Shown here: positions 18,119 to 25,700 of the stretch, in pieces
How the letters are laid out: each line of letters begins with the position of its first letter
Position numbering within the stretch: position 1 is the stretch's first letter
Virus record (IMG/VR): IMGVR_UViG_3300001598_000033
Span: 64,001-128,000 of that record
Source: a virus
Lineage: Duplodnaviria; Caudoviricetes
Reading direction: 5' to 3' (one strand)
Length of the DNA stretch: 64,000 nucleotides
Notes under the pieces: generated by a model
Seen by the model: the letters and a program-made list of their open reading frames with translations, nothing else
Told to the model about the DNA's origin: nothing
The model's database searches: none
Made by a program: the position numbers and the translations under genes

Positions 18119-20743
18119 ATGTATAAAATAACTGTTTTTAATTCTCAAAAGACTCAAGGAAAAAGACCTATAAGTCCATATGGCGATGAAACATTTGATT
18201 TTAGAACAATCGAAGTTTCAGAACCTATGGATTTATACAGAATCTTAAGTAAAGAGTTTATTCTAAATATTTCATTGGATTTAAGTGAAACAAAGCGATT
18301 AAGAAGACGTAAGCAAGACTTGGAGCAGTATTACCCTTCAACTACAAATTATGTCATTATTGACGTGGATCATGTTAATTCTAAAGAAAATCAGATTAAA
18401 ATACTTAATTATTTTAAGAATTATAAATGTATTCTGGGTGAATCCCGTAGTTGTAATAATATAGATAACTTTAATTTAAAAGGTTTCTTATTTTTAAAAC
18501 CTATTGAAATCTCTAAATTAAGACCATTATTAGAACAATTACACGATGATTTAATGGAGTATGGAGATATTGATTTAAGTCCATCTCACAAAGCAAAATT
18601 AAATGCTCCTATGAATAAAGTATCCGTTCTATTAGAATCTAATATGAATGAGTACGAATTCATATTAAGACTTAAAAATGTTGATAAAAAAGCATTTAAT
18701 AATTTAATTGATCTAAATGATCTAAAAAGTATTCCTAAGGATATTGATTTAACTAATATAGATAGTATTGATAAATTATGCCTTAAGGTATTTGAATCAT
18801 TAGGATTTGAAGCTTTAAAAGCTAACGGTAATTGTATTATTTTTAAACATGATTCAGAAACTAAAAGTCCGGGTGGATTTTATTGGTTTAAAGATAATCC
18901 TTATGTTATGAACCACTATAACGAATTAAGAAGCATTAACTTATTCGAGCAAATAGTGAAAATGCCAGAAGCAAAGGAATTACTAAAGAAACAAATAAAT
19001 TATGATAATGAATTATTAAAATATAATACTAATACTAATTTAATAAGTGTAAATTTGCCTTACCTTACAATTACAGATGAAATTAAAAGTCATATAGATA
19101 CATTTTTAGCAAAGAATGATGGATTATTTAGTATTAAAAGCCCTATGGGTACTGCAAAATCAATTATAATAGATGAAATTATTAGACAAGCTAAATGTAA
19201 TGATTTGAGGATAATGATATGTTCTAATAGAATTTCAGTTGCGCAAGATTTTAGTAAGAAATATGGTATTAAGTTATATAATAGGGATCAATATAATCCA
19301 GGTGATTCTCTGATCGTACAGTATGACAGTTTATGGAAATACAATATAAGATTATTTGATGTTATTATATTGGATGAATTTGTATCAGTAATGCTACATG
19401 CTAGAAATAACTTAACTAATTCCTGTATTAACTTATCTAAATTATTTGCTTGTTTAAGGAAGAAATTAGTTATTGCAGATGCATTCTTAACAGGTTATGA
19501 AAATAATTTATTAAGTTTTAAGAAAGACAATGTATATATGATACAAAATGATTACAGAGATGATACTAAACTATATGAGTACGAAAATTTTAATTGTTTT
19601 ATACAAAGCGTACTAATACATTGTAAAAAGTATAAAGCAACTATTAGTTGTACATCTTTAGTAACTATTAAAGCACTTAAAAAATTATTGGAGAAACATG
19701 GGTTAAAGGTAATAACATTAACATCAGAAACACCTCAAATAACTAAGGATTTAATATATAAATTATTTGAAAATGATGAAAATAATAAGTACGATGTACT
19801 TATATATAGCCCTACATTAACTGTTGGAGTATCAAATTTAAATGATGTGGATATCCATTTCCATTATGATACATCCAATACTTGTGACGCTATTAGTTCA
19901 TTGCAAATGATTAAAAGAACAAGAAGAGCCAAAGAGATACATTATTTTATTAAAAATACTATTAATTATAATTTAAAAACATCTTTTAATGAAATAAAAT
20001 CAGAATATATGAAGAATGTTGGCAAACAAATAGAATTAAACTTTTTATTTGAGTTAAATGATTATGGTGAGCCTAAATTAAGTAAATTGGGAAAAGGTGC
20101 TATATTTATTGATTTATTTAGAAATATATTAGAGTTTAATCATAAAAATTCATTTATATATTTATTACAATATCAATTTAAGAATAAACCAGAATTAGTG
20201 TCAAAGAGATATGAAAGTAATGTATTATTACCATACATAAAAGAAGTGAAAGATGACATTAAAATGGAAAATAAGGAATTGGTAGATGAGTATATATTAT
20301 TATCTGGAGATGACATGGATATATCTAAATTTGAAAATAATAATATGTTCGATATATTATTTGACTTAGAAAAGTATATTATTAAAGATATTCCATTGGA
20401 TATTAAAAAGGAAATATTATATAAGGAAATTGAACATAGAGGATTTATTGATAAATGTAAACGATATAATATAATAAGTGAATATTCAAGAACAATGGAT
20501 AAACAACCTATACAAATTGAAATTTCTAACGATATATTAAATGATATCCAAAAAGTAAGTTTTTGGAATGATGTATTGAAGGTTGTGCAAATCCCATTAG
20601 AAGATGAATATAAAATTAAGGATGTGCCATCAAATCTAAAGAAAATATTAGATGAATGTGGATATAAAAAGCTTTCAAAAAATTGTGAAAGATATTATGG
20701 AGTTGAGAAAGAAGTAATGGAATATAAGGATTATATATGCTAA
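18119..20743 (+). CDS. UL9/origin-binding-protein-like SF2 helicase
   Basis: IKSPMGTAKS, IILDEFVS, IADAF, YSPTLTVGVS, LQM..R.R motifs. Confidence 0.7.
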   Translation: MYKITVFNSQKTQGKRPISPYGDETFDFRTIEVSEPMDLYRILSKEFILNISLDLSETKRLRRRKQDLEQYYPSTTNYVIIDVDHVNSKENQIKILNYFKNYKCILGESRSCNNIDNFNLKGFLFLKPIEISKLRPLLEQLHDDLMEYGDIDLSPSHKAKLNAPMNKVSVLLESNMNEYEFILRLKNVDKKAFNNLIDLNDLKSIPKDIDLTNIDSIDKLCLKVFESLGFEALKANGNCIIFKHDSETKSPGGFYWFKDNPYVMNHYNELRSINLFEQIVKMPEAKELLKKQINYDNELLKYNTNTNLISVNLPYLTITDEIKSHIDTFLAKNDGLFSIKSPMGTAKSIIIDEIIRQAKCNDLRIMICSNRISVAQDFSKKYGIKLYNRDQYNPGDSLIVQYDSLWKYNIRLFDVIILDEFVSVMLHARNNLTNSCINLSKLFACLRKKLVIADAFLTGYENNLLSFKKDNVYMIQNDYRDDTKLYEYENFNCFIQSVLIHCKKYKATISCTSLVTIKALKKLLEKHGLKVITLTSETPQITKDLIYKLFENDENNKYDVLIYSPTLTVGVSNLNDVDIHFHYDTSNTCDAISSLQMIKRTRRAKEIHYFIKNTINYNLKTSFNEIKSEYMKNVGKQIELNFLFELNDYGEPKLSKLGKGAIFIDLFRNILEFNHKNSFIYLLQYQFKNKPELVSKRYESNVLLPYIKEVKDDIKMENKELVDEYILLSGDDMDISKFENNNMFDILFDLEKYIIKDIPLDIKKEILYKEIEHRGFIDKCKRYNIISEYSRTMDKQPIQIEISNDILNDIQKVSFWNDVLKVVQIPLEDEYKIKDVPSNLKKILDECGYKKLSKNCERYYGVEKEVMEYKDYIC

Positions 20744-21183
20744 TAACAAAAATAAATGAATCGTTTAGTTATTGTGATGGTACTAAAGAAGAATTAAAAA
20801 TTGCACTTGATCACCTTAAGATATATGACCCAAGCACTAAGTATGATAGATTAGTACAGTTAGGTTTAAGAAGTCCATACAAGTGCTTTGGCAGTATGCA
20901 ACAAGGTAAATTATTAATATATAATGGTCATGCTCATTTAGTGGATAATACATACCAACAACCTACCTTTAAAGATGATGTTATTGAATTCAAAAATATA
21001 TTAAAAGATATGAACTTACCGTTTGAGCCATATGATTACCAAATTAGGGCAGTAGGTTATGCTTTGTTATATAAGAGGGCATTACTAAAATCTTGCACTT
21101 CATGTTTGGACCCTAATACAGAAATAGAAGTTGATATCCCTGGATATACAGAACAAGAAATAAGGGAAATGCTAGATGAATAA
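20737..21183 (+). CDS. uvsW: UvsW helicase fragment 1 fused to split intein N-part
   Basis: PYDYQ..AV...L..KR.LL..CTS, then intein block A CLDPNTEIEV. Confidence 0.9.
   Translation: MLITKINESFSYCDGTKEELKIALDHLKIYDPSTKYDRLVQLGLRSPYKCFGSMQQGKLLIYNGHAHLVDNTYQQPTFKDDVIEFKNILKDMNLPFEPYDYQIRAVGYALLYKRALLKSCTSCLDPNTEIEVDIPGYTEQEIREMLDE
21103..21180 (+). other. Split intein N-fragment (26 aa)
   Basis: CLDPNTEIEVDIPGYTEQEIREMLDE directly after the Walker A half-site. Confidence 0.85.
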
Positions 21184-22136
21184 TTGTTTAAAAAATAAAT
21201 CTGAATCTTATAAAATATGCTCCAAATATTTTAATAAGAATCAATTATTGATTTGGATAAATCTTTTTGGAAGTTTAACGCAATTAAAACTATTATTGAA
21301 ATTAAGATTATCACATAATTTACCTATTGATTTTCTACGATTTAAAGAAATAAACCGTAGAAAAAAGAATGATAAAGCTGTAACATTAAAAAAATATATT
21401 TTATATTATGAATATAAAGCACATAAAATTATATAAAGAATATGTTAAATCAAAATGTAAAGGTTGGCATCGACCAGGAATAAATCATGATTCCAAATCT
21501 TTAGAATTTTGTATTAAAAAATTCGGCAATGAGAAAGGAAAAGAAGTGTATAAACAAAGGTGTTTTGATTGTGGTAAATCTACAAGAATACAATATTTTA
21601 TTGATAAAGGTTTAACAGAAGATGAAGCAAAAATTGCTTTAAAAGAAAGACAATCAACCTTTAGTCTTGAAAAATGTATTGAAAAATATGGTGAAGTAGA
21701 AGGTACTAAACGTTGGAAAGAGAGACAAATTAAGTGGCAAAATACTTTAAATTCAAAATCTGAAGAAGAAATTAAAAGAATTAATCTATTAAAATCTTCA
21801 GGTAAAAATAACGTAACAACAACAAATGGATATTGTTTATTATATTATATACATTTTTATAATGTCGAAGATAATTTCAATGTTTGGAAAATAGGAATAA
21901 CTGGGAAAAGTGTTGAAGAAAGATTTAATTTAAAACTATTAAAAATGCATCATAATTTAAATTATGAAATTAAATTTATTCAAAAATATAATTCTGTTGA
22001 TGAAGCATATTCAAAAGAACAATATATTTTAAGTGCTTTTAATGAAAATAGAGTTTATACAAATTATAATGGTTTTTTAACAACAGAAACTTTTAATAAA
22101 GATGTTTTGGAAGGATATTATGAAACTAACATATAG
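21176..22136 (+). mobile_element. Free-standing homing endonuclease gene with C-terminal GIY-YIG-like domain, broken into two frames near 21410-21430
   Basis: CI.K(F/Y)G...G repeats; LYYIHF...WKIGIT..SVEERF...E..IL; ORFs 21176-21436 and 21408-22136 overlap out of frame. Confidence 0.7.
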
Positions 22137-22464
22137 ACAAATTCATAAATTATTGGATAAAGGCATTGAAATGTTTGTTGATAGCCCAACTGGTAAAAAG
22201 AAAATTCTAAATAAATTTTCTAAAATGTCTGAAGGCTATATTATTAAGTATGATGATAATACTGAAACAAATTGTGCAGTTGCACATAATATGATTTTTA
22301 ATGGTATTTTAAAAGGAGCCTCTGAAATTCAAGTTGGTGATATTGATGATTTATCACATAAAAAAGTTATTTCAAAAACAAAAATTCCAGAACAAGAATA
22401 TTTAGATTTTGAAATTTCGGATCCGAATGGACTTTATATTCAAAATGGAATAATACACCATAAT
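22120..22464 (+). other. Split intein C-fragment (115 aa)
   Basis: V.SP.G, block B CAVAH, block F YLDFEI, block G NGIIHHN followed by +1 Ser. Confidence 0.9.
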
Positions 22465-23454
22465 TCTGGTAAAAGTCTAGTTATCTCCATGATTCTCGAG
22501 TATTTCAGAAGGAAAGGATTAAAGGGTGTATTAGTAGTTCCAAATATTAACTTACTAACACAATTCAAATCAGATATTGAGAGTTATGGACTTAACGATT
22601 TATATAATGAAATCCAAGTACATGGTGATGGTAATAAATCTAATTTTGATACAGTGCTAACCATTAGTACTTGGCAATCATTGGTTGATGAAAAGAGAAC
22701 TAATTTTGATTTTATTATATGTGATGAATGCCATCGATTCGCTTCGGATGTTACAAGTGATATTATTCAAAGATCGTATAACACATCAATTAGATTAGGT
22801 TTTACGGGGACATTACCCGAAAATCCTGTAGATAAGATGATGTTATTAGGGCTTTTTGGCGAACCTAAAACAGTTATTACTTCTAAAGAGTTAATTGAAA
22901 GAGGTTTAGGTTGCCCTGTAAGTATAAAGAGTATAATTTTGAATTATAATAATGTAAGCAAGGCAGAATTTAGAGAATGTACCGACTACCAAAAGCAACT
23001 TCAATACATAATTGACCATCAAAGAAGGAATGAAATAATAGTTAGGTTATGTACAGGGTTATCATTAAAGAACCAAAATTCATTAGTGTTATTCCAACGT
23101 ACCAACCACGGTAAACAATTATTTATTGATATTATGAAAACATTGTATCCAGAGGTGAATGTTGAGAATAAGGATATAGTAGGTAAAAAATCGTTGGAGT
23201 TCCAAAAGCAATATAATGTATTCTTTTTGAATGGTGAGCAAGACTCAAAAACCCGCGAAGAAGTACGACATATTATGGAAAACAACTTTATAAGAATAAC
23301 ATTAGAAGACGGAACATTATTAAATATACCTGAAGATGATGATGTTAAATTAACTACTGGCATAAATATTAAAGCAAAAGATTTAAAAGAAACTGATGAA
23401 ATATCGGACGAGTGGCTAAATGAACAAAAAATGTTATTACGTATATCAAATTAA
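22120..23454 (+). CDS. uvsW: Split intein C-part, UvsW helicase fragment 2 and Hint-like C-terminal tail
   Basis: RBS and ATG at 22120; HHN|SGKS; VVP...L..Q, STWQS, DECH, GFTGT, HG..L; tail ITLEDG...KAKDLKETDEI. Confidence 0.9.
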   Translation: MKLTYRQIHKLLDKGIEMFVDSPTGKKKILNKFSKMSEGYIIKYDDNTETNCAVAHNMIFNGILKGASEIQVGDIDDLSHKKVISKTKIPEQEYLDFEISDPNGLYIQNGIIHHNSGKSLVISMILEYFRRKGLKGVLVVPNINLLTQFKSDIESYGLNDLYNEIQVHGDGNKSNFDTVLTISTWQSLVDEKRTNFDFIICDECHRFASDVTSDIIQRSYNTSIRLGFTGTLPENPVDKMMLLGLFGEPKTVITSKELIERGLGCPVSIKSIILNYNNVSKAEFRECTDYQKQLQYIIDHQRRNEIIVRLCTGLSLKNQNSLVLFQRTNHGKQLFIDIMKTLYPEVNVENKDIVGKKSLEFQKQYNVFFLNGEQDSKTREEVRHIMENNFIRITLEDGTLLNIPEDDDVKLTTGINIKAKDLKETDEISDEWLNEQKMLLRISN

Positions 23455-24447
23455 AAATATATTAACTGGTAGAAAATATATAGGAAGTAGGGGTTGCTAC
23501 GGCGACCCCCTAAATATTTAGGGGTTAAATATTTTTCAAGTTCAACTGATAAAGATTTTATAAATGAACAGAAGAAAAATAGAAATAATTTTGAATATAT
23601 TATTATTAAAAAGTTTGATAATAGGGATGATGCTATTTTATACGAAAGTGAGCTTCATTTAAAATATGATGTAATGAGAAACCCAGATTTTTATAATAAA
23701 GCAAATCAAGGTAAAATTAATGGTAAATGGGAATCGCCAAAAAATCAATTTTGTAAATTTCATACATATAAAGAAGTATATGGTGAAGAGAAAGGTGCAG
23801 AGTTAGCAAAAAATCATAGTAATGTACTGAAAGGTAAACGATTTAGTGAAGAGCATAGAAAAAATTTGGCAAATTCTATTCGCAAAAGAGTAAAAGGCAA
23901 GACACTTGAAGAGATATATGGAATTAAAATGGCTCAAGAAATAAAACAAAAATTAAAGGCTCCGAAGTCAGAAGAAACAAAGAGAAAAATATCTGAAGCC
24001 AGAACTGGATACAAATGTACGGAGGAAGCAAAGCAACATATTTCTGATGGGATAAGAAAACTCCATGCAGATCCAGAATATAAAAAGAAATTCACAGAAA
24101 CAATGACAAGAGTAAACCAAAATGTTGATAAAAAAGAAAAAGCGGGAAAAGTTATAAAGGAACTTTGGCAAACAGATGAGTATTTAAATAAAATGAAAAA
24201 TAGAAAACACAGGAGATGTAAGGTAATTGAAGTTACATACCCTAACGGTGATGTTAAAACCTTTAATGGTTTTGATAAAATGTGTGAAGACAATAATTTT
24301 AATAAAACTATTGTTAGAAAGTACCTAAAATCTGGTGATGTTATTCCTAAATATATTGGTGTTAAGAAATCAGTAACATTTTCCACAGATTATATAAATT
24401 TAGAAGGTTATAAATTTGTTTTAAAAGGATATACTAATGAAAATTAA
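23420..24447 (+). mobile_element. GIY-YIG (Seg-like) homing endonuclease with NUMOD3-like repeats; -1 frameshift near 23506-23513
   Basis: ATG at 23420 reads MNKKCYYVYQIKNILTGRKYIGSRG; a second frame continues YLGVKYFSSS...E..LH...FYN; SEEHR and SEETKRKISEA repeats. Confidence 0.85.
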
Positions 24448-24754
24448 AAAAATTGAAAGAATGAGCCCAATCCTTGTAAGTAATACAGCCTTGTTATCAA
24501 CAGGGGTATCCATAAAGGCGCTTAAAAATTTAATTTTAGCTTCACCGATGAAGGCATTCACCACAGTATCTCAAAGCCTTGGAAGATTGATGAGATTACA
24601 TAAAGATAAAAAGGAAGCATTTGTATATGACATAGTTGATAATTTCAGTTTTAGAAAACCTAGTGGGATTTTTTGGAAACAATACCAACACCGAATTGAA
24701 AGTTCGTATAATCCGGAAGATTTTGGAATTACAGAAACAACTATTAATTTATAA
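24437..24754 (+). CDS. uvsW: UvsW helicase fragment 3 (motifs V-VI)
   Basis: STGVSIK.L..LILA, QSLGR.MR, VYDIVD; short MKIKKIER leader. Confidence 0.9.
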   Translation: MKIKKIERMSPILVSNTALLSTGVSIKALKNLILASPMKAFTTVSQSLGRLMRLHKDKKEAFVYDIVDNFSFRKPSGIFWKQYQHRIESSYNPEDFGITETTINL

Positions 24755-24814
24755 TTAATTTATAATATTATATTATATAAAAATACTAAAAAAAATTTCA
24801 ATTTTTTGAAAAAA

Positions 24815-24898
24815 AATTTAAAAAGGGGTTGATTTTTATTTTAAAGTATGCTATAATATATACATAAAGATAAGGAATTAAAGAAAACTTAAGAGGTA
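24815..24898 (+). promoter_or_regulatory. Repeated early promoter unit, copy 2
   Basis: TTGATT(24829)-17-TATAAT(24852), same leader and GAGGTA. Confidence 0.85.
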
Positions 24899-25395
24899 AT
24901 GAATATGATGACAGTAAACAAATCAGAAGTTGAAAATGAAATTAACGCATTGTTTGAAGAACTAGTACCACCAATGGGTAAGGCAGACACAGTGGCTGGC
25001 GAAATTATCAGAGCTACTTGCAAAATTGTATACCGTTGGTACAACGATGGGGATTGCATTGATCGCTCTTACGGCAAGGAAGTTTTAAATGCCCCAGCAA
25101 GATATCTTTGCGCAGTATGCAAGGGTGAAGTTGGTGATTATATTCGAAACACTCTCTGGGTGAGCTTTACTATGAAGAAGAATTAGTAGAATTACAAAGA
25201 TTAGTTTTGGTACATATTGAAAATCACCCAGAATTAATGACAACAGATAACAAATTGGATATGTACGATGACTTCCAATACACATCAGATACTTGGTATT
25301 CAGAAGATGACTATGACGGAGATGATTGGAACGAAGACGATGACTATGAATGGAGTGACCCATTCGCATACAACAACGATGAAGATGATGAATAA
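24899..25395 (+). CDS. Hypothetical early protein with acidic tail, apparently frameshifted at ~25158
   Basis: LVP..GKADTVAGEIIRA..YRWYNDGD; one extra G joins it to LYYEEELVELQRLVLVHIENHPEL. Confidence 0.55.
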
Positions 25396-25421
25396 TATTT
25401 GGTAATAGATATAGTGAGGTA

Positions 25422-25700
25422 ATGAATATGGCAAAAGTATATTATGTAAAATCAACACACCGTGGCCGTGAAACAATTTGGGAAGGTACTCTTGAATACC
25501 TAAAAGAAAGAGTATTCGGTTACACTCTTGAATGTGGACATTCATGGAATCCAAAGATCAACCCCGACCCAAAGACAATTAAATCATTAGTAAATGCTTT
25601 AGAAAAATCTGCAATTGAATGCAACCGCTACTATGATTCCTATTATGTTTCATCAAAGGAAGAATTTGATAATTCAGATAATGCTCAACCAATGGATTAA
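25422..25700 (+). CDS. Hypothetical protein
   Basis: GAGG RBS; conserved-looking FGYTLECGHSWN motif. Confidence 0.65.
   Translation: MNMAKVYYVKSTHRGRETIWEGTLEYLKERVFGYTLECGHSWNPKINPDPKTIKSLVNALEKSAIECNRYYDSYYVSSKEEFDNSDNAQPMD

Follow-up and report, generated by a model that had tools for sequence, protein, structure and literature searches.

A helicase gene in three pieces

The stretch of DNA analysed here (the window) comprises 64,000 nucleotides (nt), positions 64,001 to 128,000, of the 154,412-bp IMG/VR virus record IMGVR_UViG_3300001598_000033, which is estimated to be 84% complete and has a G+C content of about 25%. At positions 20737-24754 of the window, six open reading frames (ORFs) on the + strand are tightly packed or overlapping, and pieces of a UvsW-like helicase gene alternate with pieces of endonuclease genes. 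The helicase pieces are referred to as fragments 1 to 3, their helicase parts as exteins, and the interruptions between them as break 1 (within the Walker A motif) and break 2 (just before motif V). An earlier note on this DNA, made from the sequence alone, had described the motifs of a superfamily 2 (SF2) helicase as spread over three ORFs; both the motif coordinates and the alignment with the UvsW protein of Vibrio phage Va1 bear this description out. The helicase parts of the locus are as follows (lengths in amino acids, aa).

20737..21102, + strand: fragment 1 extein, 122 aa, with the N-terminal domain, the PYDYQ region and the first half of Walker A (…LLKSCTS); BLASTP to Va1
21088-21102, + strand: half of Walker A (KSCTS); motif read
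22465..23286, + strand: fragment 2 extein, 274 aa, with SGKS, motif Ia, TWQS, DECH, TGT and the motif IV region; BLASTP to Va1 and Pfam ResIII (1.6e-16)
22465, + strand: SGKS; motif read
22717-22740, + strand: DECH; motif read
22801-22815, + strand: TGT; motif read
24470..24754, + strand: fragment 3 extein, 94 aa, with motif V, motif VI, the C-terminus and the stop codon; BLASTP to Va1
24491-24517, + strand: motif V (LLSTGVSIK); motif read
24572-24595, + strand: motif VI (QSLGRLMR); motif read

Among annotated intact relatives, the 512-aa 'DNA helicase UvsW' of Vibrio phage Va1 is closest, with 56-59% identity to fragments 2 and 3, followed by UvsW proteins of Campylobacter phages (38% identity). 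In BLASTP, the three same-strand ORFs tile the Va1 helicase without loss: residues 5-122 of fragment 1 correspond to Va1 13-135 (E 7e-25, 38% identity), residues 121-397 of fragment 2 to Va1 135-413 (E 1e-115), and residues 12-105 of fragment 3 to Va1 418-511 (E 7e-41). All SF2 motifs from I to VI are intact, and the best matches are annotated UvsW proteins. The Pfam model of the UvsW N-terminal domain (PF21241) did not match fragment 1 at E 0.1, yet this fragment aligns with the Va1 N-terminus at the identity given above. At the level of sequence, these comparisons confirm that one UvsW-like SF2 helicase is encoded by three separate ORFs.

A comparison of the fragments across relatives for signs of selection had been set beforehand as a test, and the proportion of nonsynonymous differences (pN) proved to be well below that of synonymous differences (pS) in every fragment: 0.28 versus 0.83 in the fragment 2 extein, 0.26-0.35 versus 0.62-0.81 in the fragment 3 extein, and 0.26-0.45 versus 0.62-0.93 across all three exteins. 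An intact uvsW elsewhere was also looked for with the helicase core across the whole 154-kb record (84% complete), and a single copy was found, at this locus.

A predicted split intein within Walker A

Features of break 1 are listed below, with nonsynonymous (dN) and synonymous (dS) substitution rates calculated against the related locus L004, which carries break 1 without break 2.

21103..21183, + strand: predicted N-terminal intein half (IntN), 26 aa (CLDPNTEIEVDIPGYTEQEIREMLDE), and stop codon; Cys1 stands where extein homology stops; 24/26 residues identical to L004; dN 0.03, dS 0.45
21176..22136, + strand: endonuclease gene 1, probably of the T5orf172 type (GIY-YIG clan), frameshifted into ORFs 21176-21436 and 21408-22136; DNA alignment with L004
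22120..22464, + strand: predicted C-terminal intein half (IntC), 115 aa, ending …GIIHHN, with ribosome-binding site (RBS) GGAAGGA at 22109-22115 and start codon ATG at 22120; matches to inteins in the PDB; 111/115 residues identical to L004; dN 0.01, dS 0.62

The Walker A motif is divided as …KSCTS/SGKS…. Homology of fragment 1 to Va1 stops at …LLKSCTS, and Cys1 (codon 21103-21105) directly follows this N-extein, with 25 further residues and a stop codon behind it. Fragment 2 starts at ATG 22120, which is also the start position in L004, and not at 22102 as first annotated. In phmmer searches, IntC matches the VidaL intein (PDB 6vgv, E 3.4e-4) from chain position 25 and the gp41-1 intein (PDB 6qaz, E 3.7e-4) from chain position 28, as expected if the first ~25 residues are supplied by fragment 1. 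The block B His lies in …NCAVAHNM…, where AVAH aligns with AFNH of VidaL (CAFNH), the block F Asp in LDFEIS, and block G ends in the terminal His-Asn (…GIIHHN). The +1 residue is Ser, and the joining of KSCTS to SGKS restores the host motif as it occurs in Va1 (MCTSSGKS). No Pfam intein model matched the break 1 intein at E 0.1, tblastn found no match to IntC among GenBank phages, and no intein paralogue was found in the phage's own genome. This evidence supports the assignment of break 1 to an atypically split class-1 intein, with all catalytic residues, a 26-aa IntN and a 115-aa IntC. The dN/dS ratio between the window and L004 ranges from ~0.02 (IntC, 115 codons) to ~0.07; since dN lies far below dS in both halves, the intein appears to be kept functional, under very strong purifying selection.

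An α1-like helix lies beside the split in both intein halves, at 21148-21180 in IntN and at 22123-22164 in IntC. The IntN helix is acidic (TEQEIREMLDE), and the IntC helix, which HMMER aligns with the VidaL helix, is basic (TYRQIHKLLDKG). These paired helices could reflect a duplication at the point of endonuclease insertion or a charge-paired contact.

Endonuclease gene 1 carries an extra A in the run 21424-21427 relative to the intact 322-aa ORF of L004, which leaves it in two pieces. The Pfam match of T5orf172 (PF10544) to the intact L004 copy is weak (E 0.013, 16.4 bits versus a cut-off of 20), and in the nearest Atlas cluster (score 0.94) this domain occurs in 45% of the members. The genes at the two breaks are indeed different, as had been proposed; gene 1, which had been called GIY-YIG-type as well, is better described as T5orf172-like, a weakly supported member of the GIY-YIG clan and not a classical GIY-YIG gene. 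Its dN/dS of 0.12-0.21 points either to a recent frameshift or to a sequencing error. In DNA, the N-terminal repeat region (21590-21785) of endonuclease gene 1 shows 73-76% identity with a hypothetical Caulobacter phage Cr30 gene and with an uncultured 462-kb phage, and appears to be a DNA-binding module common to mobile nuclease genes.

Compared with L004, identity is 92% in IntN, 97% in IntC, 80-88% in endonuclease 1, 36-58% in the exteins and 52% in the neighbouring gene. DNA of the element as a whole (21097-22446) is 82-94% identical, as against ~50-60% for the host gene, which marks it as a mobile element. Its upstream edge is sharp, and downstream the identity decays through 72, 71 and 63 to ~55%; a sharp edge on one side and gradual decay on the other are the signature of homing with co-conversion.

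The halves of the split intein thus belong to neighbouring ORFs separated by a free-standing endonuclease gene, the arrangement of the fractured genes described by Dassa, London, Stoddard and Pietrokovski (2009; PMC2677866), in which a phage DNA-metabolism gene is likewise broken by a split intein. As in those genes, the ORFs overlap and the downstream Met comes from the element. In contrast to the hosts reported there (gp41, IMPDH, DnaE, NrdA, NrdJ, ligase and terminase), the gene broken here encodes a UvsW-like helicase, the endonuclease is probably of the T5orf172 type, and a second break without an intein is present. The intein itself resembles the atypically split inteins (AceL-TerL, GOS-TerL and VidaL; PDB 6vgv) in its short IntN, long IntC, Cys1, terminal His-Asn and +1 Ser; as at break 1, SGK comes after the VidaL chain, and the IntN of known members measures 15-37 aa, a range that covers the 26 aa found here (PMC13014065). 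It differs from them in sequence, in having no close match in GenBank phages and in the α1-like helix on both sides of the split. The literature search found no paper describing an intein in UvsW, and by its sequence we regard the intein at break 1, with its 26-aa IntN, as a new member of the atypically split group. Atypically split inteins with a short IntN are sought for protein semisynthesis.

A putative intein-derived module at break 2

Break 2 holds a second endonuclease gene and, on either side of it, short extensions of the helicase fragments. It occurs without break 1 in the related loci L007 and L010.

23287..23454, + strand: fragment 2 tail, 55 aa (FIRITLEDG…KDLKETDEISDEWL…), and stop codon, a putative split N-intein remnant (C-terminal half); conservation in L007 and L010, hhalign, profile search and AlphaFold2 (AF2) prediction
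23420..24447, + strand: endonuclease gene 2, putatively a Seg-like GIY-YIG gene with a region resembling NUMOD3, starting in frame 2 and passing to frame 1 at the C5 run 23506-23510; motif read and phrog_314
23490..23509, + strand: G+C-rich hairpin with an 8-bp stem and a UACG loop at the endonuclease 2 frameshift; fold z-score -2.7, unique in the window
24437..24469, + strand: fragment 3 head, 11 aa (MKIKKIERMSP), a putative split C-intein remnant (first strand); MKIKKIE invariant in L007 and L010

Homology of fragment 2 to UvsW extends to …RHIMENN and that of fragment 3 begins at ILVSN; fragment 2 reads 55 residues past its homology, and fragment 3 opens with 11 extra residues. Fragment 3 has its own RBS (AAGGA, 24425-24429) and ATG (24437) inside the 3' end of the endonuclease 2 ORF; together with GGAAGGA before fragment 2, this agrees with the earlier note, which had placed an RBS of each downstream fragment inside the 3' end of the upstream endonuclease gene. 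In endonuclease 2, the GIY-YIG motif (YYVYQIKN…RKYIGS) can be read from ATG 23420. The protein matches phrog_314 'homing endonuclease' (1.5e-21) and, weakly, SegE_GIY-YIG (PF19835) and NUMOD3. SegE of phage T4 is a GIY-YIG endonuclease encoded next to uvsW, which it cleaves (PMC2988022); endonuclease 2, a putative Seg-type GIY-YIG endonuclease, is likewise tied to uvsW, but it lies within the helicase gene and not beside it, and it is frameshifted, being one base short at the C5 run relative to an intact 307-aa ORF in L010.

A second palindrome (CCCCTAAA/TTTAGGGG, at ~23507-23524) adjoins the hairpin, and both stand exactly at the endonuclease 2 frameshift. Their sequence is absent from the L010 orthologue, while the length is kept (44 versus 45 nt). 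Programmed frameshifting in the endonuclease genes was considered as well, since full-length proteins would result if ribosomes slipped by -1 on the C run and by +1 on the A run; it was rejected, as neither canonical slippery sites nor the proper spacing were found; the frameshifts in both genes are treated as mutations or sequencing errors.

The break 2 module has no N-terminal nucleophile (Cys or Ser1), TxxH, terminal Asn or +1 nucleophile: the tail opens with F, N or V, PEDD or xGN(E/Q) stands in place of TxxH, the 11-aa head has no HN, and the next residue is Ile. The insert contains too little non-coding sequence for an intron core, and Rfam searches of 20000-25500 at permissive thresholds gave no intron matches. 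Because splicing residues and an intron are missing and fragment 3 is equipped with an RBS and ATG of its own, joining at break 2 would have to be non-covalent. From its sequence, the module appears to be intein-derived and not an intein.

The origin of the tail and head was traced with a pattern scan of IMG/VR for KDLxETDEI, which recovered two kinds of sequence. The first comprises true inteins and split inteins (L014, L016, L020 and L021), in which the motif closes the N-intein, with the block B TxxH before it, and the C-halves open with MKIKKI… or LRIKKIE… and close with …SHN followed by T or C. The second comprises six UvsW loci of T4-like phages, in which an HNH endonuclease gene splits the helicase at another site, before motif Ib, together with a tail of the same type and the head MKIKKIEHKEP. 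The head is thus present in the HNH-split UvsW loci too, and the true C-inteins of L014, L016 and L021 open alike. Aligned in hhalign with the true N-inteins, with the search motif excluded, the profile of degenerate tails reached 91.6% probability (E 8e-7), and TxxH fell on PEDD or xGN(E/Q). Among 1.84 billion cluster representatives, the tail profile matched 72 clusters at E ≤ 1e-3; nearly all matches lie at the extreme C-terminus of UvsW N-fragments, at either of two sites, and a few are bona fide inteins with Pfam Intein_splicing. In the HNH-split loci, the tail shows a dN/dS of 0.12-0.37, like the flanking helicase. The window tail is predicted by AF2 to form four short strands and a helix (predicted local distance difference test, pLDDT, 70-87), and the net charge is -6 for the tail and +3 for the head. 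The tail and head together therefore appear, on these comparisons, to be a catalytically dead, intein-derived module that is portable between sites and endonuclease types.

BLASTP aligned only 10 residues of the tail with gp41-1, tblastn found no match to the tail in GenBank phages, and the closest cultured cyanophage UvsW proteins have no tail. No tail or head paralogue was found in the phage's own genome. A weak tail-profile match outside the window (G000:C1:49908-49985, E 0.003), in a 512-aa open frame, may mark another gene of the same phage that contains a true intein. Two other readings of the tail were rejected. A decayed duplicate of motif V (LTTGINIK versus LSTGVSIK) is contradicted by L007 and the HNH-split loci, which lack that similarity and keep the rest of the tail; DNA polymerase as a host of the tail, suggested by a weak phrog_13169 match, is contradicted by P0021 (462 aa), which is a UvsW N-fragment.

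Several relatives carry further insertions of this kind. At the pre-motif-Ib site, P0012 (L030:491-2137) has a 54-aa insertion in which the tail runs in frame into the head; of the 120 sequences listed, all 119 others have just 2 residues at this position. AF2 predicts strands at both ends of the insertion and leaves the middle uncertain. P0012 has a second tail at site 2, with a head (MKPDSIEHKE…) 34 nt later and no endonuclease gene between them, and the C-terminal part of P0012/L030 is apparently broken, or the contig is poor. P0058 (603 aa) is a UvsW N-fragment with a LAGLIDADG maxi-intein from ~aa 137, in the P-loop region, and a degenerate tail at the pre-motif-Ib site. A maxi-intein combined with a tail split in P0058 and two tail modules in P0012 point to UvsW as a hot spot for such elements. 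In L021:891-2636 and P0051, a GIY-YIG domain is fused in frame after the N-intein part (…KDLSETDEIVDFKPFGYIYKCTHPYTGKIYIGK…), so that Pfam Intein_splicing and GIY-YIG occur in one protein; GIY-YIG was stated as not known inside inteins (Dassa et al., 2009; PMC2677866).

Assembly of the enzyme and competing explanations

We propose that IntN of fragment 1 and IntC of fragment 2 associate and trans-splice to …KSCTS-SGKS…, yielding a 451-aa protein; this step is very likely. The spliced product would bind the separately translated 105-aa fragment 3 non-covalently, whereby motifs V and VI complete the second RecA-like domain; this second step, argued by exclusion and from the purifying selection on fragment 3, is probable. 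Trans-splicing and non-covalent docking are also the two mechanisms that had been suggested at the outset, and the sequence evidence at breaks 1 and 2 speaks for both. Both breaks would have been made by homing-endonuclease elements, a T5orf172-type gene inside the intein and a SegE-like GIY-YIG gene travelling with the remnant module. Taken as a whole, the explanation of the locus as a helicase of three polypeptides is considered fairly probable.

The acidic 55-aa tail and the basic 11-aa head, as splicing-dead intein parts adjoining the split point, might in addition act as a clasp between the fragments. Split-intein fragments first recognize each other via anionic IntN and cationic IntC regions (PMC11766414); what the tail and head retain are the parts beside the split point, which in split inteins make the first contact. 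Such a clasp is possible, but it is put forward only tentatively. More tentative still is the wider proposal that the module was exapted as a portable heterodimerizing clasp, carried by GIY-YIG or HNH endonuclease genes, which allows them to split essential genes without a usable +1 nucleophile by tethering the products unspliced. Several observations weigh against the proposed explanation of the locus, the clasp included. AF2 gave no usable model of the C-intein in fragment 2 (pLDDT ~30), comparison of the tail with the PDB by phmmer and profile search gave matches at chance level only, and the charge complementarity of tail and head is weak in several loci. The dN/dS of the tail in the window's group is 0.5-1.2, with wide confidence intervals that include 1, and a second uvsW may lie in the 16% that the record is estimated to lack.

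The strongest competing explanation, which we nevertheless regard as unlikely, is that the helicase fold alone bridges break 2, as in the mobE-split NrdA of Aeh1, and that the tail and head are passengers of the cassette that supply a stop codon, the beginning of the endonuclease gene and, downstream, the translation signals (RBS and ATG). The dN/dS of the window-group tails just mentioned fits this explanation, as do the overlap of the tail with the endonuclease gene start, the proposal that an endonuclease gene provides, on invasion, the stop and start signals that the broken gene then uses (Dassa et al., 2009; PMC2677866) and the apparent youth of the cassette (tail dS between the window and L010 0.30, with saturated flanks). 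It accounts poorly for the same tail and head accompanying two unrelated endonuclease types at two sites, for HNH-split tails constrained like the helicase, for the persistence of the tail without an endonuclease gene in L030 and for the predicted fold of the tail.

It is very unlikely that two invasions have left the helicase gene dead or in decay, with the three ORFs as functionless remnants. Both resident endonuclease genes are frameshifted and the C-terminal part is decaying in the relative L030, as would be expected of such a gene; however, no SF2 motif is damaged, each fragment has a pN far lower than its pS, intein dN/dS is as low as 0.02, the gene is single-copy in the record, and each type of split persists in diverged lineages. 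An assembly artefact, either a chimera of two strains with one break each or sequencing errors as the source of the endonuclease frameshifts, is less credible again: both breaks occur together on this contig only and both frameshifts lie in homopolymer runs, but the C-intein and the tail belong to one continuous ORF of 1.3 kb (fragment 2), independent contigs bear out each break, and long ORFs (up to 1412 aa) are intact across the very AT-rich window. Least credible is repair of break 2 into one covalent polypeptide by a group I intron with a GIY-YIG ORF or by ribosomal bypassing, for although GIY-YIG genes are often found in T4-type group I introns and the frame of fragment 2 continues into the insert, the Rfam search found no intron, the space free of conserved coding sequence amounts to just ~130 nt upstream and ~25 nt downstream of the ORF, conservation of the tail is at the protein level, fragment 3 comes with translation signals of its own, and known bypasses span tens of bases and not ~1 kb (Dassa et al., 2009; PMC2677866).

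Endonuclease-split genes whose separately translated parts reassemble non-covalently are known from Aeh1 nrdA (mobE), T4 gene 39/60 and Aeromonas phage gp43A/B (PMC2988022). Unlike these, break 2 is flanked by a 55-aa tail and an 11-aa head of apparent split-intein origin, this module is common to several sites and endonuclease types, and a putative true split intein is present in the same gene; the literature search found no description of a dead-intein tail/head module. What is new is the apparent presence of both mechanisms, a split intein and non-covalent reassembly, in one gene, each of them being known separately. The locus illustrates the degree of fragmentation by selfish elements that an essential phage gene can undergo under continued selection, with two invasions and two different proposed repair strategies in one 512-aa enzyme. 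If true, the dead-intein clasp would represent a natural stage midway between protein splicing and the simple association of subunits, would account for the ability of endonuclease cassettes to colonize sites without a splice-competent residue, and would offer a small natural pair of binding tags.

Within the locus, a search revealed no late promoters (TATAAATA) or terminators. Directly upstream, at 18119-20743, lies a gene for an 874-aa helicase (phrog_10417, Helicase_C), which overlaps the start of fragment 1 and occupies the same position in L004.

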